A stretch of DNA of 64,000 bases from Shigella phage Shfl2. Shown here piece after piece: positions 11,450-61,663 of this stretch. A program made the position numbers and the translations under genes. How positions within the stretch are numbered: position 1 is the stretch's first letter; every line of letters starts with the position of its first letter. Below the pieces are notes generated by a model, which did no database searches, had not been told where the DNA came from, and was given only the letters and a program-made list of their open reading frames with translations. The stretch lies in the sequence record HM035025; one strand, written 5' to 3'.

Positions 11450-12052
11450 TTATAGATTAAATCCTTCAAAATCAAGAGTATAGATAGTGTATGTTGAATA
11501 CTTTTTATACTCGTATCTATCCGCAATTCTAAATACACTTCCAGCTGGTATCATTACTTCTTGTTCATCTGAAACTAATTCCATATTACGATAGCGATGG
11601 CTATCCGGAAATTTAAAACTCGGGCTATATTCTTTACAACGTAAAGCTTTTATAGCATACTCCTGGAAATTAAACACCATAGGAGCTTTGAATTCAAAAA
11701 TAACTTGTGTGTTGTATTCTAATCCAGAAGCAAAATGTAGAGCTATATTTTTATCATATGAAGCTGATACTACTTTATCAAATGTAATAATATCAATTCC
11801 TTGATTTAACACCTGCTTAGTCTCAACTGGAACACCTCTCCAAAGAGGTTTATCGTTTGGTTCCAAACGAGATTTGATTATTTCATTTAACCAAGAATGA
11901 TCGTCTGGCTTATTAGTAATACAATGAATTAAAAGTTCAATTTCGGATAAATTAAATCCTTCAGAAAGTAATTCTTCACGAATAGAAGCACGCACCGATG
12001 CATCCATTGATTTGATTTTAAAATCTTTTAATTGCATTGCTGAATATTTCAT
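11450..12052 (-). CDS. modA: ADP-ribosyltransferase ModA
   Basis: 200 aa; R...STS...E-x-E style ART motifs (RGV, SASYD, EQEVMIPAGS). Confidence 0.8.
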   Translation of the reverse strand: MKYSAMQLKDFKIKSMDASVRASIREELLSEGFNLSEIELLIHCITNKPDDHSWLNEIIKSRLEPNDKPLWRGVPVETKQVLNQGIDIITFDKVVSASYDKNIALHFASGLEYNTQVIFEFKAPMVFNFQEYAIKALRCKEYSPSFKFPDSHRYRNMELVSDEQEVMIPAGSVFRIADRYEYKKYSTYTIYTLDFEGFNL

Positions 12053-12684
12053 TCAACTACCTCAATATCATACACTTTAAATGTTCCAAACGAATCGTGT
12101 AATTTTTCTTTTGAAATAGAAGTTATTTTATACTTTCCAATTGGAATCATCCATTCTTGTTCATGTACAATCATCATTAAGTTATCAGTACGTTCTGAAT
12201 CTAATCCATCAGTATCTTCATATGTATACTTAAACTCAGTATTAGGAGAAGAAAGTATAATATCGCTGATATGGTCAGAGTAATTAAAAGCTTTATCAGT
12301 TTTTAAGCGAAGTACTATTTCAGTGAAATATTCAGCATAAGAAAAAGAACACGCTGTATGCAAACTAGTAGTAAATGAATCTACTCTGTTCGTTGAAAAC
12401 ACTTCTCCAACTTGTAAATCTTTAATGAGTTCTTTTGTCGATTTTGATATACCACGATATAGCTGATACGGCGATTTAGTTAAATGCTTTTTAACGATTT
12501 TATTCAACTGCCGATGAAGAGCTTCATTCTTTTTGGCTTCCATACATTGCCAAAGAACTGACTGCTCAAAGTCAGTAAATTTTTCACAGACCTTTTTATA
12601 CATATCATATTGAAAATCGACACTTTCAGCTTTTATAGATAACTGTTCAACATCTGCAGGATTAATAATCATGATAGCCTCCAT
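12049..12684 (-). CDS. modB: ADP-ribosyltransferase ModB
   Basis: 211 aa; paralog of ModA with YRGI, FSTNRV, HEQEWMIPIG motifs. Confidence 0.78.
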   Translation of the reverse strand: MEAIMIINPADVEQLSIKAESVDFQYDMYKKVCEKFTDFEQSVLWQCMEAKKNEALHRQLNKIVKKHLTKSPYQLYRGISKSTKELIKDLQVGEVFSTNRVDSFTTSLHTACSFSYAEYFTEIVLRLKTDKAFNYSDHISDIILSSPNTEFKYTYEDTDGLDSERTDNLMMIVHEQEWMIPIGKYKITSISKEKLHDSFGTFKVYDIEVVE

Positions 12685-17879: not shown

Positions 17880-18506
17880 CTAACCTTTATTCATAAAAGC
17901 ATTAAAAATTTGGTCATCAATAGAAACATTTACTTTAGACTGTTTTTCTGATGGTAATTCATATCCACATATTACAATTTTGTGATCAATATCAAAATAC
18001 ACAGAAGCAATATGATTAATGATGTTTTCAGTAAAGTCTAAATCAACATCAATATCTTTTTGACCACAGCCCAAAGGATAAATAATGCGAGTAATTCGAT
18101 TATCTTTAACAAATATTCCACCGACATACTCTGTGCTGCGTTTAAAGTCTACACGCCGACGAAATGAAAAATATTCAGGCTCTCTATGAGCTCGGCTCAT
18201 AGGACACAACGAGTAACTAGAATAAGAGATGTCAAATCCTACGCCTTCAATATGAGCCAAAGTGTCATGATTAAACCAATTATAATCGTACGCCAAATCC
18301 ATTAGATTATAATATGTAAAAGGCACCGGATTAACATCATTAGTCACAAGCATGTAATTAGCAACTGCTATAATTTCATTGTTTTTAACGAATACAAACC
18401 GTGATTGATGCGAATGACCTGGACCCGCGTTTTCACGATTAATGATATAACACTGGGCACCTTTATATTTGTATGTATCTTTGCACTTGTGCATTTGATA
18501 GAGCAT
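17880..18506 (-). CDS. hypothetical protein (61.2-like)
   Basis: 208 aa; C-terminus ...SIDDQIFNAFMNKG. Confidence 0.45.
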   Translation of the reverse strand: MLYQMHKCKDTYKYKGAQCYIINRENAGPGHSHQSRFVFVKNNEIIAVANYMLVTNDVNPVPFTYYNLMDLAYDYNWFNHDTLAHIEGVGFDISYSSYSLCPMSRAHREPEYFSFRRRVDFKRSTEYVGGIFVKDNRITRIIYPLGCGQKDIDVDLDFTENIINHIASVYFDIDHKIVICGYELPSEKQSKVNVSIDDQIFNAFMNKG

Positions 18507-34922: not shown

Positions 34923-36123
34923 ATTTTGTAATAATGTCAAACTGTTCTTTAAAGCAGAAGCTTGAATCTTGATGCTGATACAAAAATTCATAAGCTTTTT
35001 CGCGTTCACGGTCATAAAGAGCTCGGTCAGATGACAGTTCTTTAATACGTTCAAATGTTGATTCCATGTCATTTTCATCAAACCAAACGATACCGCTATC
35101 ATGTGAAATTAACGGAGTATTATCAACACGGAATTTTAAATTTTCGCCAGTAGATTTCCAAAATACTGGAATTGTTCCACATGCACCGAGCTCGAGATGA
35201 GTATATTCTAAAGAACGTTGTAGATATTTTTTGTCCAACTTACTCAGCTGATAACCAAATCCGGATTTACTCATGCGTTCAAGCATTTCGCTATTTACAT
35301 AACGGTCAAGAATTTGCGTTGGCAAATTAGGAGCAATTTTAATTTGGTCTACTTGATGAAGACGATAATACTCGTATGGAATTCCTTTTTCTTTAATAGG
35401 AATGAACGCTGGAGAACGTTCCAGACCTTCCATAATAGTACTTAGTCCTGCGGGTTTAAGATGTTTTTCATGAAAATCAAACATCTGATAAAAACCTTTC
35501 CATGTAGTCGTACGACCAATCCAACGATTGATATTCATGTTAATTTCAGAAACATCTTTCCAGTAGGTTGACCGAACCTTCGCAATATCCATAGGAGGCT
35601 GAAAGTTATATACGGTCGGTGCTTCTTCAATGTCATCAAACAGAGAAACAGTTTCTGGATACCATTCTTTCATCAGAACTTTATTAAAATCACCATTATC
35701 AGAATGGCTAAAAATAACATCAGCTCGACGAACAGTTTCTTCTAATCCCAAATTTCGGCGCAAAGAAAGAGAAGAATGGTCATGTTGATAAACTACAACA
35801 CGAACAGAAGGTTTAATGTTATCAATAATTTTTTTATAGTTATTAATAGTGTCTTCTTCAACCGAAGTAGCAGGAACTGAATTGATAATTAGAATATCAC
35901 AATCATTTACCAGCTTAAGTGTTTTATCATATTCTTTTGCCAATAAAACCGGAATTGAAAATGATTTATAATCATGCGCACAATTACGAGTAAATGATTT
36001 ATCTTTAGCATAAACCAAAGTTACTTCATGACCATTTTTAATAAACCAATCACGTTGCTCGAGTGAGAATTTTGTTACACCACAACCTTCAAGACCTCGA
36101 GCCATAAAAATACATACTTTCAT
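34921..36123 (-). CDS. agt: DNA alpha-glucosyltransferase
   Basis: 400 aa; starts M[K/R]VCIFMARGLEGCGVTKFSLEQRDWFIKNGHEVTLVYAKDKSF... as T4 alpha-gt. Confidence 0.93.
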   Translation of the reverse strand: MKVCIFMARGLEGCGVTKFSLEQRDWFIKNGHEVTLVYAKDKSFTRNCAHDYKSFSIPVLLAKEYDKTLKLVNDCDILIINSVPATSVEEDTINNYKKIIDNIKPSVRVVVYQHDHSSLSLRRNLGLEETVRRADVIFSHSDNGDFNKVLMKEWYPETVSLFDDIEEAPTVYNFQPPMDIAKVRSTYWKDVSEINMNINRWIGRTTTWKGFYQMFDFHEKHLKPAGLSTIMEGLERSPAFIPIKEKGIPYEYYRLHQVDQIKIAPNLPTQILDRYVNSEMLERMSKSGFGYQLSKLDKKYLQRSLEYTHLELGACGTIPVFWKSTGENLKFRVDNTPLISHDSGIVWFDENDMESTFERIKELSSDRALYDREREKAYEFLYQHQDSSFCFKEQFDIITK

Positions 36124-52778: not shown

Positions 52779-53300
52779 TTATCCTTTCATTGAAGGCGTA
52801 ACAGTTGTTAAATACTTAATCATAGCTTCAGCTTCTGATTTTGATAATGAAATTTCTCCATTGTTTTGACGAATAGAAATAAAATCCGGATGACGGTCAC
52901 CACCAGCTTTTAAAATACACATATAAGTATCAGTTTCATCTTCAATATCTGAAATGATTGAAGCAGTTCCGCATGAATGTGGTTTTTGATAAATCAATGC
53001 AGCTTTTCTTCCACCGTTTGACTGTTCATAAACTTTTAACACATCAAACAAATCACTTCTTTTATCAATAGCTAAAATGTTATTTTCATCTTCAATGTTA
53101 AATCCTTCGGATACTTCATAAAGTGTTACCCATAAATCACCAATGTCAATAACAGCATTTACGTTTCCACGGCTTTCAAGAGTATGACAAATTTTCTTGA
53201 TTTCATCATAACTCATTTTAATAATATCATCTCCTTGAATAAGGAAGATGTCATTTTTAAATTCAACGCGAATTAAACCGCTTCCACTTGAAATAAACAT
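52779..53300 (-). CDS. hypothetical protein, paralog pair member
   Basis: 173 aa; C-terminus ISLSKSEAEAMIKYLTTVTPSM matches the next ORF. Confidence 0.45.
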   Translation of the reverse strand: MFISSGSGLIRVEFKNDIFLIQGDDIIKMSYDEIKKICHTLESRGNVNAVIDIGDLWVTLYEVSEGFNIEDENNILAIDKRSDLFDVLKVYEQSNGGRKAALIYQKPHSCGTASIISDIEDETDTYMCILKAGGDRHPDFISIRQNNGEISLSKSEAEAMIKYLTTVTPSMKG

Positions 53301-53306
53301 ATTTCC

Positions 53307-53864
53307 TCACTTTGAAATCATAGTTGGAATAACAGAATCAAGATAAGTCTTTAGTGCAATAGCTTCGTCTTTGTTTAATGTAATGATATGTGATCGAAAA
53401 TCGTCAATTTGACGAATAGATACTACATCTCCCTCTTCATAGCATTTTGACACATTTAAAATAGTTTCATCATTCTGATTACAGGAGTTAGTAATAATAG
53501 CATTACATTTTTTAAACCATTTTAAATTATGTTTTCTTTTAGTAGAATCATAAAAATATTTAATGTTAGTTATAAAATTATCCCAATTATTAATTGATAA
53601 GCACATTGACTCGCTTTTAATATTAAATCCTGGGCATGAAGAATAAAAATGAATTTTATGCTCATCATTAATGTTTACAATTTTATCAGTGTAAGCATAT
53701 TCAATTTGGGTTAAACGAACAATTTCACTAGGCGTAAAATATAACATATCATCTTCTTGCGTCAAACGATACATGTTATTTACTTTTTCGATCGCTAATT
53801 CACCAAAAAGCACACTATCTTCTAATACTAATCGTTTCATATTGATTCTCTTCGACTCACTCAC
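53307..53864 (-). CDS. hypothetical protein, paralog pair member
   Basis: 185 aa; C-terminus ITLNKDEAIALKTYLDSVIPTM. Confidence 0.45.
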   Translation of the reverse strand: MSESKRINMKRLVLEDSVLFGELAIEKVNNMYRLTQEDDMLYFTPSEIVRLTQIEYAYTDKIVNINDEHKIHFYSSCPGFNIKSESMCLSINNWDNFITNIKYFYDSTKRKHNLKWFKKCNAIITNSCNQNDETILNVSKCYEEGDVVSIRQIDDFRSHIITLNKDEAIALKTYLDSVIPTMISK

Positions 53865-55265: not shown

Positions 55266-55555
55266 TCAGTCTCCAATTTAATGTTCATAATTCTAGCGTA
55301 TGATTGTGCCATCTCCGCGCCTCGCTCTATACATTCAAAATCAGAAGAGCACGGGTCATTTTTATAGGTCGTTCTCATAAAACTATAGAATTGTTCAGAC
55401 GATTCTACGCTTTTATTTTCAAAAAGTGTATAAACGTGCCTAATACCAGATTCCATAAATTTATCAAAATGAGGATCGACATTCGCTTCAATCGGTGGAG
55501 ATAAAGCAAATGCTAATCCTAGCATGGCAAATAGTGCCGTTGCTTTTAAGGCCAT
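55262..55555 (-). CDS. rI: lysis inhibition regulator RI
   Basis: 97 aa; MALKATALFAMLGLAFALSPPIEANVDPHFDKFMESGIRHVY... as T4 RI with SAR-type N-terminus. Confidence 0.85.
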   Translation of the reverse strand: MALKATALFAMLGLAFALSPPIEANVDPHFDKFMESGIRHVYTLFENKSVESSEQFYSFMRTTYKNDPCSSDFECIERGAEMAQSYARIMNIKLETE

Positions 55556-55567
55556 AAAGGCCTCCTA

Positions 55568-55780
55568 TCATTTTTGTCCTGTATTTACTTTATGCCGATG
55601 CACGGCCTTAACTTTATCAAGGTATTTTTCAAAATTTCGCAATCTAGTATAGTCTGCCGGAGATTGGTTGAGTGATACTTCTCGACGCAAAGCTGAAATG
55701 ATATTTCCAACTTCCCTACGAATTTCATCTAATTGAAGCACAGTAAGATTGCGAAGTTGCTTTTCAGTTAATTGTAGCAT
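55568..55780 (-). CDS. hypothetical small protein (rI.1 position)
   Basis: 70 aa ORF. Confidence 0.45.
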
Positions 55781-55805
55781 ATATACCCCTTTAGTTAGAT
55801 AAATC

Positions 55806-55813
55806 TATTTATA
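55806..55813 (-). promoter_or_regulatory. late promoter TATAAATA upstream of rI.1/rI
   Basis: Exact TATAAATA on the minus strand between tk and rI.1. Confidence 0.5.
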
Positions 55814-55822
55814 ACTTTTGCA

Positions 55823-56404
55823 CTAACCGAGCTTTTTAGTTAATTCATTCCAATGTTTTCTACACAAAGAAACATAAATTTCATCACCAATACAGATTTG
55901 ATTACCTTCTTTAACTGGTGTTCCATCTTCCATTAATCGAGCTGTCATAATCGCTTTTTTACCGCAATGACAAACTGCCTTCAGTTCAATAAGTTTATCT
56001 GCAATCGCCAAAAGTTCTTTAGAACCTTCAAACAATTTTCCAGCGAAATCAGTCCTTAATCCATAAGCCATAACAGGAACATTATATGTATCAACAATTC
56101 GACTCAATTGATGCACCTGTTCAGTTTTTAAAAATTGGGCTTCATCTACAAATACGCAATGAATATCTTTTTGTGCTTCAGCCCATTTATAGAACTCGAA
56201 AATATCCATATCATCTGTAATAATATTCGCTTCCTGTTTAATTCCAATGCGAGAAACGACTTCACAGACAGAATCGCGAGTATCAATAGCAGGCTTAAGA
56301 ACTAATACACTCATTCCACGTTCTTTATAATTATGCGCAGCAGTTAAAAGAGAAGCAGATTTTCCAGCATTCATTGCTGCATAAGTAAAAATTAAACTCG
56401 CCAT
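55823..56404 (-). CDS. tk: thymidine kinase
   Basis: 193 aa; Walker A AMNAGKS; C-terminal zinc-binding Cys cluster. Confidence 0.93.
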   Translation of the reverse strand: MASLIFTYAAMNAGKSASLLTAAHNYKERGMSVLVLKPAIDTRDSVCEVVSRIGIKQEANIITDDMDIFEFYKWAEAQKDIHCVFVDEAQFLKTEQVHQLSRIVDTYNVPVMAYGLRTDFAGKLFEGSKELLAIADKLIELKAVCHCGKKAIMTARLMEDGTPVKEGNQICIGDEIYVSLCRKHWNELTKKLG

Positions 56405-56413
56405 ATCACCTTC

Positions 56414-56599
56414 TTAAAGCGTATTCACATAAGCTATTAATTCGTTTTCTTTCTTATCAAACCGATCAGCAAATTCTTCTTGCTGTTCGGGAGATAGCGG
56501 GCCGTATTCATCATAAAAGGTGTTTGCTTCTGTATGCTCATCTAGAAGTTCATGGATAAGCTCAAACAATTTATCTTTTTGTTCTTTACTCAGACTCAT
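56414..56599 (-). CDS. hypothetical small acidic protein
   Basis: 61 aa ORF. Confidence 0.4.
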   Translation of the reverse strand: MSLSKEQKDKLFELIHELLDEHTEANTFYDEYGPLSPEQQEEFADRFDKKENELIAYVNTL

Positions 56600-56765
56600 A
56601 TATTAATTTCCAGGAGTTTTAAAATAATTCGCTTTTGCTTAAATATTTCCATAGTTAAATGACCAGTATCTTTTTGACCGATTCCAATGGCAAAACCTTT
56701 ATTAACAGCGAGTTCAATTAAATTATCAAGCTCACGTAACACTTCGTATTGTAACTCAAAACTAT

Positions 56766-56993
56766 TCATTTTGGTTTACCTTCTTTAACGAAATCAGGAT
56801 AAGGATAAAATCCTGAATAAAATCCTTCACCTTTATGATTGATGCATCCTTTATTAGAACAATAGCACCAATAATCGAAATCACAAGCCATTTCATCGTT
56901 GCATAAAGCAAAAACAACCGGCCACTTACACTTTTCACAATGAGCATTTTTAAGAATACTAGTTTGGCTCATAACCATGTAACCTTTAAACAA
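56766..56993 (-). CDS. Cys-rich small protein
   Basis: 75 aa with about 10 Cys (CEKC, CNDEMAC, CYC, GC); the overlapping ORF 56762..56947 is judged an alternate frame. Confidence 0.4.
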   Translation of the reverse strand: MFKGYMVMSQTSILKNAHCEKCKWPVVFALCNDEMACDFDYWCYCSNKGCINHKGEGFYSGFYPYPDFVKEGKPK

Positions 56994-57181
56994 TATTCTT
57001 CTACGTGCTGTTTACGACCTTTCTTATCAATAAAGGTATATTCAACGAATGTTCCAATATAGTCTTTATCTACATCATGAGGACTATTAATTGGGCATTT
57101 AGTACGGCAAATGCGTTCCCATTGACGAATAATTTCTGCTTTGTTTTTAGGATCAAACGGATGTGGGTAATGTACTTTCAT
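56969..57181 (-). CDS. hypothetical small protein
   Basis: 70 aa ORF. Confidence 0.4.
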   Translation of the reverse strand: MKVHYPHPFDPKNKAEIIRQWERICRTKCPINSPHDVDKDYIGTFVEYTFIDKKGRKQHVEEYCLKVTWL

Positions 57182-57632
57182 AATCCACCACTATTAAATC
57201 AATATCAGGAGTAAACATGTCGATTAATTTAGAAACCTTATCCCAATCACCGCCAGCAATACCACAACCTATGCGTGGAATGTAAATTACTGGTTTAAAC
57301 AAAAGGGTCTCTGCCTGTAGATTTAATTCTATCATGCAGTTTACTAAAGCACCATAATCAAGATTAGGACCCGGTTCGTATTGCGTATACAGGTTATAGC
57401 ACATACTAAATCCTGTAGGATTATGTTTAAAAACAATAGACATATCGCCTAATTTATCACGAGAACCATATTCAGTAGTGGTTTTATCTATTTCTAAAAT
57501 TTTAGGATAGGCCCTTGCTAATTGACCCGCTACACCTGAACCCATAGTATGAAAACAATTGCACCCGTGCGCAATAATATTACCTTGAAGAAATAGGGCG
57601 ACAATATCGCCCTTGATATATTTTACAATCAT
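57153..57632 (-). CDS. macrodomain protein, TARG1/DarG-like (putative ADP-ribose hydrolase)
   Basis: 159 aa; KGDIVALFLQGNIIAHGCNCFHTMGSGVAGQL and PRIGCGIAGGDW resemble the two signature segments of TARG1-type macrodomains. Confidence 0.55.
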   Translation of the reverse strand: MIVKYIKGDIVALFLQGNIIAHGCNCFHTMGSGVAGQLARAYPKILEIDKTTTEYGSRDKLGDMSIVFKHNPTGFSMCYNLYTQYEPGPNLDYGALVNCMIELNLQAETLLFKPVIYIPRIGCGIAGGDWDKVSKLIDMFTPDIDLIVVDYESTLPTSV

Positions 57633-57976
57633 CTAGTACTCAATCCTCGATTATAAGAATCTACTAAACGGTCAACCATTGAATGACAAGCGGCTTTATC
57701 TTTCTCCTCCGCAACTGAACATTCTAAGGTATTCCACTTTTTAGCATATCGTTTTAACAATGTATCATTTTTATATCTACTTGATTTATCTCTTTCTCCG
57801 TCTTTATATGCATATATTAATTTCTGCGCAAATTCAGCTTGGCATGCTTTATTTTTCCCACAATAATCTGCCGCAGTGCGGTTTACATATTCTCTAATTT
57901 CAGTATATGATGTATCTGCTGACGCATAAGCAGAAAATGAAATTAATCCTATACATAAAACCAAAATTTTAGTCAT
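57629..57976 (-). CDS. small secreted protein
   Basis: 115 aa; signal peptide MTKILVLCIGLISFSAYASA; four Cys in the mature part. Confidence 0.45.
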   Translation of the reverse strand: MTKILVLCIGLISFSAYASADTSYTEIREYVNRTAADYCGKNKACQAEFAQKLIYAYKDGERDKSSRYKNDTLLKRYAKKWNTLECSVAEEKDKAACHSMVDRLVDSYNRGLSTR

Positions 57977-58514
57977 TTACTATTTCCAAAAGTTTATTAT
58001 TTTTAAGGTAGTTAGCCTTTTCTAGGACTTCAGAAGCATATTTAGAACCTGCTTTAACATTCCATCCCGAATTATAAGAGGATATTGCTTTTCTTATATC
58101 GCCCTTATGTATATTTAACCAATAAGAAAGTTCAATGTACGCCCAGGAAGCTGAATTGGATCGTTTATTCAACATTCTTTTTATTTCAGCATCGGTCATA
58201 TTATAACCAAGTTCCTTAACTCTTGCTCGCATAGTAGGCAAATAATTTTGGAACATTCCATAAGCGTGATGCTTTGGTTTAGATTTTAAATTAACTCCGC
58301 CAGAGCTTTCTTGCCATAAAATAGCAGCCATTATATGACCTAATCCGCTCTTGTGGATATTTTTATGTGTTTTATATTTTCCATCCTTAGAAAATTGTTC
58401 CCCGAATTGATACGCGTAACGCATGTTATCGAGTTGGACATTACTGAAAGTATGCTCGGAGCTATGTGCCATCATTGAAATGGCCAATAGACCAGCGAGT
58501 AGTGCTTTTCTCAT
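57969..58514 (-). CDS. secreted lytic transglycosylase-like protein (SLT domain)
   Basis: 181 aa; signal peptide; ...WQESSGG...AYGMFQ resembles the SLT catalytic E-S and GLMQ motifs. Confidence 0.5.
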   Translation of the reverse strand: MRKALLAGLLAISMMAHSSEHTFSNVQLDNMRYAYQFGEQFSKDGKYKTHKNIHKSGLGHIMAAILWQESSGGVNLKSKPKHHAYGMFQNYLPTMRARVKELGYNMTDAEIKRMLNKRSNSASWAYIELSYWLNIHKGDIRKAISSYNSGWNVKAGSKYASEVLEKANYLKNNKLLEIVND

Positions 58515-58521
58515 GCTTACC

Positions 58522-58983
58522 TCATTGAGTTTTAATTACTGCTTTAGAAGCCTTTCCTGGTAAACGACGACTATTGATAATTGCCATCCTGCACTGAAGT
58601 GACGGGTCTTTGAACTTCGCATTAGGTTTACAAACTGTAAATCCAAGCCAAAGATTTCCATCTGTGATTTCTAAACGTCCAGGACGATATTCAACCCCAT
58701 CAATAAAATCCTCGTCAATGTCAGGACGCGGAGGCATACTTAGGAATTCATTAACTTCTAAAACATGGTCTTTTATTTTATGGAATAATTCAAAAACGTA
58801 TGTCTCATCAATCTCCCGTTGAATTGCGCGATCAAGAAGATGTTGAGAATATTTTAGATGAAACGATGAGACTCCTGCTGCTTTTGATGCCTCACGAATC
58901 TCATTGTTGATTTGACGAAACTCCGACTCAAAGTGACGACGAAGCTTATTTCGACGGATAAAAACTTCTGTGTTGATAGTCAT
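58522..58983 (-). CDS. regB: RegB endoribonuclease
   Basis: 153 aa; MTINTEVFIRRNKLRRHFESEFRQINNEIRE... as T4 RegB. Confidence 0.88.
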   Translation of the reverse strand: MTINTEVFIRRNKLRRHFESEFRQINNEIREASKAAGVSSFHLKYSQHLLDRAIQREIDETYVFELFHKIKDHVLEVNEFLSMPPRPDIDEDFIDGVEYRPGRLEITDGNLWLGFTVCKPNAKFKDPSLQCRMAIINSRRLPGKASKAVIKTQ

Positions 58984-59042
58984 GTTATTCTCCTCTTAAC
59001 TGATAGAAAAATTATACCACAGTCAAGAGGAAAAGTAAACAA

Positions 59043-59363
59043 TTATTCTTTAAATCTAATCAATTTATTCATAGACTTTGAAACTTCTGCACGAACCTCA
59101 TGTAGGTTTTTGAGTTGCTCAAGACGCTGCTCATAGTAAGCAATTTCATCTTCTTCGAGACAGTCCTGTGAATCTTCTTTAAGATAGCGTGCATAATCCT
59201 GGAAAGCGTTACGGACTACTTCCTGGAAGTCATCAAGACTTTGAATTTTCTTAGGAGCAACAGATACACGACGAGGGGCAGTATAATACTCATAACCAAA
59301 CCCTGCGCTTAATTGAGCCATTAATATTTTTCCTCTGGTTGGAACACAGCACGACAAGCCCAC
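59043..59363 (-). CDS. hypothetical protein
   Basis: 106 aa ORF. Confidence 0.4.
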
Positions 59364-59587
59364 ATACTGGCTTCTTTGAGTTTCGTTTTAGCAATAGTTA
59401 ACTGATCGAGGCTTTCAGCATAATTCTTCGCGAATTCACAGTCTTCACAATTATCTAGTGCTTCCCAAAATTCATCGTATAAAGCATCAAAGATAAGTCC
59501 TAAACGAACTTCAGCATCTTTAATAGCATTCACTTTACCGATTTTCTCTTCAGTATGTGGCTTATAACCCTTAATATCTTCAATCAT
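59321..59587 (-). CDS. hypothetical small acidic protein (vs.4-like position)
   Basis: 88 aa ORF. Confidence 0.4.
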
Positions 59588-59801
59588 ATTTTACTTCCTC
59601 ACCAGTACCTAAATCATATTCAACTAAACGAATAGGCTCATGAATTCCATATCCTTGAACAGAAATTTCTGTCGTAGGATAAATTCCGTTAATATCGCCC
59701 ATGTTCCACGCTTCATTAAATTGCTGTTCGCCTGAATTACTAAACCATTCAGCGAAAGCATTTAGCACATCTTCAGAACCTTCAATAATTATCTTTGCCA
59801 T
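59580..59801 (-). CDS. hypothetical small acidic protein
   Basis: 73 aa ORF. Confidence 0.4.
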   Translation of the reverse strand: MAKIIIEGSEDVLNAFAEWFSNSGEQQFNEAWNMGDINGIYPTTEISVQGYGIHEPIRLVEYDLGTGEEVKYD

Positions 59802-60163
59802 TACAGGCTCTCAGTAAAGGTACGAGCGATAACGTCGCGCTGCTGTTCCGGAGTCAGAGAGTTAAAGCGAACTGCATAACCGGATACACGGATGGTCAGC
59901 TGCGGATATTTTTCCGGATGCTTAACTGCATCTTCCAGAGTTTCACGACGCAGAACGTTTACGTTCAGGTGTTGACCACCTTCAATTTTAACCGTAGGTT
60001 GTGTTTCAATTTCAATTTCACGGGCATACAAACCATAGAAAATTTCTGGGTCTACAAAAGAGTCCTCTTTAAAAGTTTTAGAGACAATAATTCTTACTTG
60101 AATACCGTCTTCAAAATAAATAGTACCTTTATGCGTGCCTTCAAGAATTTGATATGCTTTCAT
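59801..60163 (-). CDS. autonomous glycyl radical cofactor (GrcA/YfiD-like), chimeric
   Basis: 120 aa; C-terminal ~65 aa ([59 protein letters not shown]) match E. coli GrcA as recalled, including RVSGY; that part is GC-rich (59805-59995), the N-terminus is phage-like AT-rich. Confidence 0.8.
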
Positions 60164-60170
60164 ATAAACC

Positions 60171-61084
60171 TCAATTAGAAAATAAATTTATCCAAGATTG
60201 TTCTTTAATTAAAAATGGCTCAGAATCATATGCCATTAAACTTTGTGTAATTAGTCCTTTAAAAGGCCCATCAATAAATTCCATGGTAAAATATGGAATT
60301 TTATTCATTAGCCGTGCATTAGGAGCCGTGCACAAAACTCTGCATCCTTTGAATACGCCTTTTTGTAATTTGTATTGCTTAAGATAAAATTCGCTCAAAA
60401 TGTTATTTTTTGCCAAAATTTCAAAATGATTCACCAATTTATTTTTAATAGTTTTTGGCGAAAAATAAAGATATTCGAAAAGTTGCGAATCTGTCATCAT
60501 TGCATTCCAATCACAAAAAATTGAGGACGAGTAATACCACCAATGCAACATTTACTATTGCAGCAGTACTGTACAGTGTCAATATGAGCATCATAAATCT
60601 TATCCATATCAGGAGATTTGACAGGCTCATCAATTATATACAAAATTCGCGAAAGCGATAAACCTCTGAACTTGCTTCCTTTATTACCAATAAAACTGCG
60701 CACAGAATCAGTAAATAAGCGGAATCGAATATCATCATTAGAATAACGCGAAAATTCCTTTTTAATGTTATTTGCAGAAATTTTAGCGTAAGCTGAAGTA
60801 TTAGAAAGAACAATAACTGTTCCGCCATCATACAACCAATTAGCAGCAAAGTTAGTCACAGCAATTGATTTACCGGATTGACGTCCACCATCTAGTCGAA
60901 GTGTACAATACTGTTTAAGTAAGTCTTCAAATGATAGGATATAATCGTTTTTACAAATTTCTTCTACTCTAGCATCAGAATGGTGTGTAAAAGCATTCAT
61001 CAGGATAGATAAGGACCAGTTAAAAATGTTCTCATTTCTTCTCTCTCTAAGTTTGGGCCATTCCATGGCGCATGAATTGTCCAT
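60171..61084 (-). pseudogene. terminase-like P-loop ATPase split into two overlapping frames (possible frameshifted remnant)
   Basis: ORF 60497..61084 has Walker A GGRQSGKS and Walker B ILYIIDEP but no SD and an N-terminus that runs through a leader hairpin; ORF 60171..60551 continues in the -1 frame; overlap contains an A6/T6 run (60515-60520). Confidence 0.35.
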
Positions 61085-61130
61085 TTCTGTATTTACCCAT
61101 TACCGCACTTGGGCTCGACCTTATTACAGG
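61040..61130 (-). repeat. repeated leader element with 9 bp hairpin, copy 1
   Basis: TAAGTTTGGG-CATTCCATGGCGCATGAATTGTCC-TTTCTGTATTTAC-CATTACCG shared with 61690-61770. Confidence 0.6.
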
Positions 61131-61189
61131 TTGGCGGGAATCCCTCACAAAATCATGAGGTCCAGGTTGTTCCCATATTTCTTATTTGC

Positions 61190-61663
61190 TTATTTGAACG
61201 ATTTAACGTACTGAATAGAACCTTTACTATTCACGAAAGCGATTTTACCATTTTTATTATACATGGTAGCAGTACGCTGATAGCCGTAAGTTTGCTTACC
61301 AGATTGATAACCAACTAATGCAAAATTATCTTCACCCATTTTATTCTGTTTAGCGCGAATGCGTTCATGACCATGTGCCATAAGAACCTTAGCATCACCA
61401 GTTGCAATGGATCGACGAGTTTTTTCATCTTCAACTGTATTAACAAAGTCGTCAAATGAATCAAATTTAGCGTGAGATTTATTATACAGTTTTCCATCTA
61501 CTGCATAATTATATCCCTGTACATCCATCTCAACTTCTGTACCATCATCCAATACAGCAGTGATTTTCTGTCCTTTTTTAAATTTCAAAAGATCAGTAAA
61601 AGATTCAGCAATAATTTGAGAATTAATAGCTGCTTCAGTAATAAATTCTTGATATGTTTTCAT
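61190..61663 (-). CDS. internal protein (IP) with capsid targeting sequence
   Basis: 157 aa; starts MKTYQEFITEA, i.e. the T4 IP CTS (MKTYQEFIAE) with a gp21-type cleavage context; body unlike T4 IPII as recalled. Confidence 0.6.
   Translation of the reverse strand: MKTYQEFITEAAINSQIIAESFTDLLKFKKGQKITAVLDDGTEVEMDVQGYNYAVDGKLYNKSHAKFDSFDDFVNTVEDEKTRRSIATGDAKVLMAHGHERIRAKQNKMGEDNFALVGYQSGKQTYGYQRTATMYNKNGKIAFVNSKGSIQYVKSFK

Follow-up and report, generated by a model that had tools for sequence, protein, structure and literature searches.

The window analyzed here is a 64,000-nucleotide stretch of DNA from Shigella phage Shfl2 (HM035025), and within it we followed up an ATG-to-stop open reading frame (ORF) on the minus strand at 57153..57632 that encodes a stand-alone macrodomain protein of 159 amino acids (aa). 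An earlier note on this DNA had placed the gene between tk and regB, and this placement is correct, with tk at 55823-56404 (99.5% aa identity to T4 Tk) and regB at 58522-58983 (99.3% aa identity to T4 RegB). The genes follow one another as in T4 (tk, small tk ORFs, tk.3, tk.4, vs, vs.1, and regB), and the 3 kb around the ORF match many Tequatrovirus genomes at 97.9% identity. The upstream neighbor is vs, the valyl-tRNA synthetase modifier gene (57629..57976, minus strand, 99.1% aa identity to T4 Vs), and the downstream neighbor is tk.3 (56969..57181, minus strand, 94.3% aa identity to T4 Tk.3). The TGA stop codon of vs overlaps the ATG of the ORF (ATGA, 57629-57632), which suggests that the two genes are cotranscribed and that their translation is coupled. 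The start of tk.3 falls 29 nucleotides (nt) inside the 3' end of the ORF, and these two overlaps place the gene in a tightly packed, co-oriented block.

We scanned positions 55500-61500 for promoters and terminators and found 21 promoter-like sites, compared with 24.5 expected from shuffled sequence, a number not above chance. A perfect GC-rich palindrome, AGGGCGATATTGTCGCCCT, lies at 57595-57613 within codons 7 to 13 of the gene (KGDIVAL); T4 has the same sequence there, and it was marked as terminator-like in both orientations. This palindrome may have arisen by chance, may form a hairpin in the RNA close to the gene start, or may be a landmark for recombination at the conserved 5' end. A recent preprint (bioRxiv 10.1101/2025.11.20.689424) reports that, of all T4 genes, the neighboring vs showed the strongest depletion in minimal medium, and the same preprint is the source of conditional phenotypes for both vs and the adjacent tk.4.

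The T4 gene at the same position is tk.4, which encodes 155 aa and is annotated as "phosphatase; contains A1pp phosphatase motif." The window protein aligns with T4 Tk.4 over 155 residues with no gaps and with 58% aa identity. Synteny and this identity together make the gene at 57153-57632 orthologous to T4 tk.4. A search of a large protein database returned 795 homologues of the 159-aa protein, and tblastn with the same query found matches in 2,766 of 50,697 phage records (about 5%). The protein matched PHROG 335 with an E value of 3e-71. Near-identical phages annotate the gene as "phosphatase," "hypothetical protein," or "tk.4 gene product," and the allele found in the window is also carried by the BASEL phages FriedrichMiescher and FriedrichZschokke. 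In one record of Escherichia phage T4 (OL964745.1, 159,752 bp), the tk.4 match at 53148-53544 is in two pieces that are annotated as two macro-domain proteins, which suggests that tk.4 is disrupted in that T4 stock.

We assessed the predicted fold by profile and structure comparisons of the kind that the earlier note had proposed, and these bore out the clade it had named. The protein matched the Pfam Macro profile (PF01661) over positions 2 to 117 of 118, with an E value of 3.7e-8 and 33.8 bits against a gathering cutoff of 22. An AlphaFold2 model built with 60 homologues had a mean pLDDT of 94.3 and a pTM of 0.89 and showed the three-layer alpha/beta/alpha macro fold. When this model was compared with the PDB using Foldseek, there were 155 matches at an E value of ≤0.001, and the best 50 of the 155 were all macrodomain-fold structures, led by TARG1 (E value of 1e-9, TM scores of 0.72 to 0.82), BT1257, Poa1p, and the DarG macrodomains of Thermus aquaticus and Mycobacterium tuberculosis. 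A profile of the family scored BT1257 at 70 bits, TARG1 at 63, SCO6735 at 57, and the two DarG macrodomains at 47 and 40, while viral MacroD-type Nsp3 domains reached only 19.6 bits with the same profile. Both signature segments described from the letters are present, with GDI...AHGCNCFHTMGSGVAGQL at aa 8 to 38, of which AHGCNCFHTMGSGVAGQL makes up aa 21 to 38, and PRIGCGIAGGDW at aa 119 to 130. The profiles and the model place the protein among the ALC1-like/TARG1-like macrodomains, a class that includes TARG1, DarG, SCO6735, Poa1p, and ALC1, and not among the MacroD or PARG types.

We aligned 60 homologues of the 159-aa protein, down to 40% identity, and found that H22, G23, N25, C26, G33, A35, D49, N80, Y82, Q84, G88, P119, G122, G124, and W130 are invariant. 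Most of these residues fall in three segments of the minus strand. The first predicted ADP-ribose-binding loop, H22 to Q37 (HGCNCFHTMGSGVAGQ), is encoded at 57522..57569. The segment from N80 to G88 (NLYTQYEPG) is encoded at 57369..57395, with the CAA codon of Q84 at 57381-57383, and the second, phosphate-binding loop, P119 to W130 (PRIGCGIAGGDW), is encoded at 57243..57278. D49 (codon at 57486-57488) is invariant in the 60 Tk.4 family homologues and is specific to this family, as DarG and SCO6735 have Tyr at that position.

We compared these positions with characterized macrodomains in a multiple alignment of SCO6735, BT1257, and two DarG macrodomains, taken from PDB alignments, and PhiKZ gp104, taken from the genome record. 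H22 and N25 of the first loop align with His24 and Asn27 of SCO6735, N25 also aligns with Asn22 of DarG, and G124 of the second loop aligns with Gly128 of SCO6735. Q84 shares its column with the catalytic Lys84 of TARG1, Lys80 of DarG (T. aquaticus numbering), Lys78 of PhiKZ AdfM, and Gln85 of SCO6735. The motif at this column reads NLYTQ in the window and T4 proteins and NMIGQ in SCO6735 and BT1257, versus LITK in TARG1 and FPTK in both DarG proteins and PhiKZ gp104. In these alignments, the Lys that is essential in DarG (K80) and TARG1 (K84) is replaced by an invariant Gln in the Tk.4 family. A profile alignment also put A126 in the column of Asp125, the other catalytic residue of TARG1. The earlier name for the protein, "TARG1/DarG-type," thus holds for the clade and fails for the catalytic residues, and it is too strong a label because the catalytic Lys is Gln84 and the Asp125 of TARG1 is Ala126. 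The prediction that the Tk.4 lineage has a Gln-type active site resembling that of SCO6735 is an addition of the present analysis.

The database labels and part of the sequence similarity could point to an enzyme of small ADP-ribose metabolites, that is, a Poa1p-like ADP-ribose-1''-phosphate phosphatase or O-acetyl-ADP-ribose deacetylase that clears by-products of RNA repair or of sirtuins or signals derived from a defense system. PHROG 335 is labeled "phosphatase," in agreement with the T4 annotation given above, and the protein matches Poa1p with an E value of 1.8e-9 as a single sequence and with 58 bits by the family profile, the two having an HxCNC motif in common. However, we take the phosphatase label of tk.4 and PHROG 335 to come from the old Pfam domain name, A1pp, and not from an assay. 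Clearance of a metabolite also does not explain the DarTG2 phenotype of a T4 Δtk.4 mutant, described below, and we consider this function very unlikely.

The role of tk.4 in T4 has been addressed by genetics. DarT2 ADP-ribosylates thymidine in TNTC motifs of single-stranded DNA, which blocks replication (PMC13309987, PMC11257639), and the T-even phages discussed in PMC11257639 were all resistant to DarTG2 by a factor then unknown. In a transposon screen of T4 on DarTG2-expressing Escherichia coli (HIDEN-SEQ), tk.4 was the single significant hit, and a clean tk.4 knockout sensitized T4 to DarTG2 (bioRxiv 10.1101/2025.11.20.689424, November 2025). The authors renamed the gene adfM, for anti-DarT factor Macrodomain, and proposed from the genetics that T4 Tk.4 enzymatically removes ADP-ribose from DNA (bioRxiv 10.1101/2025.11.20.689424). 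Counterdefense against DarTG, the first of the roles that the earlier note had listed, has thus been shown genetically for the T4 orthologue by both the screen and the knockout. The anti-DarTG2 role of tk.4 is already published for that orthologue and is not new here, and the "phosphatase" and "hypothetical protein" labels in many database records are out of date.

The chemistry that a Gln-type macrodomain might use has a precedent in SCO6735 of Streptomyces coelicolor, which has been shown to remove from DNA the thymidine-linked ADP-ribose that DarT installs, with neither of the TARG1 catalytic residues (PMC9411070). The Q85A and Q85E mutants of SCO6735 are inactive, and N27S is nearly inactive; in the mechanism proposed for it, a water molecule is activated and Gln85 positions the distal ribose (PMC9411070). 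This activity has been independently confirmed with synthetic substrates (PMC12879935). The Gln-assisted mechanism has so far been documented for SCO6735 only.

We consider it likely that the window gene, as the tk.4/adfM orthologue, encodes an orphan, antitoxin-like macrodomain that hydrolyzes thymidine-linked ADP-ribose on DNA. In the proposed sequence of events, DarT2 of the host would mark thymidines in single-stranded phage DNA and block replication. The Tk.4 protein, made from the vs-tk.4-tk.3 block, would bind the ADP-ribose through its two Gly-rich loops and hydrolyze the N-glycosidic link between ribose and thymine, releasing free ADP-ribose and leaving intact, replicable DNA. Catalysis would probably be of the SCO6735 type, with Gln84, held by Asn25, orienting the distal ribose so that an activated water can attack it, and the Lys-based chemistry of DarG and TARG1 would not be available to the protein. 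That the window allele, at 58% identity, acts as T4 tk.4 does and with the Gln chemistry of SCO6735 is inferred by analogy with these two systems.

The alignments bear on this proposal from both sides. The invariant Q84, N25, H22, and G124, aligned with Gln85, Asn27, His24, and Gly128 of SCO6735, speak for a hydrolase. Against it, the protein lacks the Lys that all DarG/TARG1-type thymidine-ADP-ribose hydrolases have for catalysis, Lys34 and Lys89 of SCO6735 are not conserved, and Poa1p, a phosphatase, and BT1257 are by sequence as close to the protein as SCO6735 is.

A hydrolase could have proteins as its substrate and not DNA. As a protein mono-ADP-ribosyl hydrolase, Tk.4 would erase or tune the marks of Alt, ModA, and ModB or those of a host toxin that ADP-ribosylates proteins. 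Both modA (11453-12052) and modB (12052-12672) are present in the window with tk.4, as the earlier note had said, but they lie 45 kb away, so there is no gene linkage. Alt, ModA, and ModB modify arginine, whereas macrodomains of the TARG1 class act on ester-linked Glu/Asp and on thymidine. SCO6735 does remove ADP-ribose from a protein, auto-ADP-ribosylated PARP1, an activity that needs Gln85 and is lost in Q85A (PMC9411070). However, tk.4 was the single significant hit of the T4 screen specifically with DarTG2 (bioRxiv 10.1101/2025.11.20.689424), and we think it quite unlikely that a protein substrate is the relevant one.

It is also conceivable that hydrolysis is secondary and that Tk.4 neutralizes DarT2 mainly as an inhibitor that binds the toxin, or else by keeping the modified DNA sequestered. 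The catalytically dead Q85A mutant of SCO6735 still inhibits DarT in vitro, and does so more than DarG K80A or TARG1 K84A (PMC9411070), and the phage factors AdfA and AdfB act by binding DarT. On the other hand, the C-terminal domain through which DarG binds DarT is absent from the window protein, and the active-site residues are strictly invariant in the 60 diverse homologues, some of which are stand-alone bacterial proteins whose genes do not adjoin a darT gene. This invariance of the catalytic residues, even where there is no DarT nearby, argues for an enzymatic function, and we regard a mainly binding-based mechanism as improbable. The bacterial family members whose surroundings we inspected have no DarT neighbor; in Pelagimonas the gene stands alone, and the other context is that of a T4-like marine phage. 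These contexts gave no evidence that the family originated in a toxin-antitoxin pair.

We returned to the 58% identity between the window and T4 proteins, since the flanking proteins range from 94.3% (Tk.3) to 100% (Vs.1) identity to those of T4, with Tk, RegB, and Vs all above 99%. The divergence is confined to a block on the minus strand at about 57180..57520, from codon 38 of tk.4 to the start codon of tk.3, where identity to T4 drops to about 55% nt and 48% aa; outside the block, nt identity is 98% in vs, 91% in tk.3, and 89% in the first 37 codons of tk.4. Within the block, aa identity to T4 is highest at the catalytic loops (69% for residues 78 to 93 and 64% for residues 117 to 130) and lowest at the C terminus (24% for residues 131 to 155). 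The alleles among the database homologues grade stepwise, with 98, 81, 79, 75, 65, and 58% identity and so on, and some of them combine a window-like C-terminal half with a different segment at residues 44 to 77. This sharply bounded mosaic allele in the present phage is a second addition of our analysis. As read from the alignments, this is the pattern that would result if old alleles had recombined in a cassette-like manner while purifying selection acted on the predicted ADP-ribose pocket, and we infer that it fits an antidefense gene under varied selection. The window and T4 alleles have kept the ADP-ribose-binding loops in common as the rest of the protein diverged, which argues that both are active enzymes, and the 48% aa identity over residues 38 to 155 leaves room for a shifted specificity in the window allele.

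These two additions, taken together, raise a broader idea that we put forward tentatively, as a possibility with the odds somewhat against it: that the whole Tk.4 lineage erases DarT2 damage through Gln, independently of Lys, and that the mosaic alleles are specificity variants. If this is true, the selection on tk.4 alleles would come from a variety of DarT2 toxins or from further defenses that ADP-ribosylate nucleic acids. The natural diversity of tk.4 alleles is a ready panel with which to study how DNA ADP-ribose erasers acquire their specificity.

A second mosaic patch lies beside tk.4, where the segment between tk and tk.3 (56414-56993, minus strand) differs from that of T4. T4 tk.1 had no match in this segment. 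It holds a tk.2-like ORF (56414-56599) with only 54% identity to T4, followed by an ORF of 57 aa (56596-56769) and by a Cys-rich ORF (56766-56993) that encodes 75 aa from a TTG start and is annotated as a 68-aa coding sequence in related phages.

The gene is not the only predicted anti-DarT gene of this phage. A homologue of 61.2/adfA lies on the minus strand at 17883..18506 and encodes a protein with 96% aa identity to T4 gp61.2, so the window holds at least two such genes, the adfA and adfM homologues. AdfA (gp61.2) and AdfN (gp30.3, a NADAR enzyme) are anti-DarTG1 factors (PMC11257639). The T-even phages direct several genes against one defense family, with AdfA and AdfN acting against DarTG1 and Tk.4/AdfM against DarTG2. 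Elsewhere in the window, a tblastn search with the T4 beta-glucosyltransferase gene (b-gt) gave no match, while its T4 neighbors are present, and alpha-gt is found at 34924-36123 with 91% identity to T4. As in T2 and T6, the set used for glucosylation may be a different one in the present phage.

Among known systems, T4 Tk.4 shares with the window protein its locus between vs and tk.3, a similar length (155 versus 159 aa), and the invariant motifs HGCNC, NLYTQ, and PRIG.G. The two differ in the second loop, which reads GAGIGKGN in T4 and GCGIAGGD in the window protein, and protection has been demonstrated for the T4 allele only.

DarG has the same macrodomain fold (PDB 5m3i and 5m31, Foldseek TM scores of 0.72 to 0.77), the conserved Asn noted above, and, presumably, the same substrate. 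It differs in its DarT-binding C-terminal domain, which the 159-aa protein lacks, and in having NFPTKK, with Lys80, where the window protein has NLYTQY. No darT gene adjoins the window gene, whose neighbors are vs and tk.3. We rejected an identification as DarG itself, since the NCBIfam equivalog NF048014 scored 28.9 bits against a cutoff of 250 and matched only the N-terminal positions 2 to 142 of 338; the PADLOC DarG model gave 28.1 bits. ICP1 AdfB was also rejected as the closest analogue, since it is not a macrodomain but a mimic of the part of DarG that binds DarT.

Human TARG1/OARD1 (PDB 4j5r) is the best Foldseek match and has PRIGCG and the trailing Trp in common with the window protein, in which the Lys84/Asp125 dyad of TARG1 is replaced by Gln84/Ala126. 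The top sequence matches in the PDB are yeast Poa1p (6lfq-6lfu), an ADP-ribose-1''-phosphate phosphatase with the HxCNC motif, and Bacteroides BT1257 (2afc/2fg1), which shares the N...Q motif and has no assigned function; identity to these two is 23 to 28%.

PhiKZ gp104, also named AdfM, is a stand-alone macrodomain that counters DarTG2, removes thymidine-linked ADP-ribose in vitro (PMC13309987), and is imported into the phage nucleus (PMC13309987, Cell Rep 2026). It is DarG-like (E value of 9e-25 to M. tuberculosis DarG), with catalytic Asn23 and Lys78, the latter of which is Gln in the window protein, and it aligns with the window protein at 23 bits and an E value of 0.001 in a pairwise comparison. 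By these scores, the two proteins are remote relatives from different lineages. The separation of the Tk.4 lineage from both DarG and PhiKZ AdfM is a further modest addition of our analysis. Since two macrodomain lineages now carry the name AdfM, with Lys in PhiKZ and Gln in the T4-like phages, mechanistic conclusions should not be transferred from one to the other.

Another phage use of a Gln-type macrodomain is found in Streptomyces phage Moab (89688-90161), whose protein is close to SCO6735 (E value of 5e-36) and BT1257 (E value of 4e-39) and whose gene is described in the literature as one half of a toxin-antitoxin-like pair, the other half being a sirtuin gene.

SCO6735 itself (PDB 5e3b) is a bacterial, DNA-damage-inducible protein, unlike the phage-encoded window protein, and the two are only 27% identical. 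Its first loop has GGWGKG where the window protein has HTMGSG, and neither of its DNA-positioning Lys residues is kept: Lys34 is S32 in the window protein, and Lys89 falls in the loop after Q84, which is about five residues shorter in the window protein and contains no Lys. Nevertheless, both are stand-alone proteins that are about 160 aa long and lack a DarT partner, both have Gln at the position of the catalytic Lys, and both conserve the His, the Asn, and the motif PRIGCG-h-AGG-x-W. Gly126 and Gly128 of SCO6735 correspond to G122 and G124, and the second loops are nearly identical (PRIGCGIAGGDW in the window protein and PRIGCGLAGGTW in SCO6735). On these alignments, SCO6735 is the closest mechanistic precedent for the window protein.
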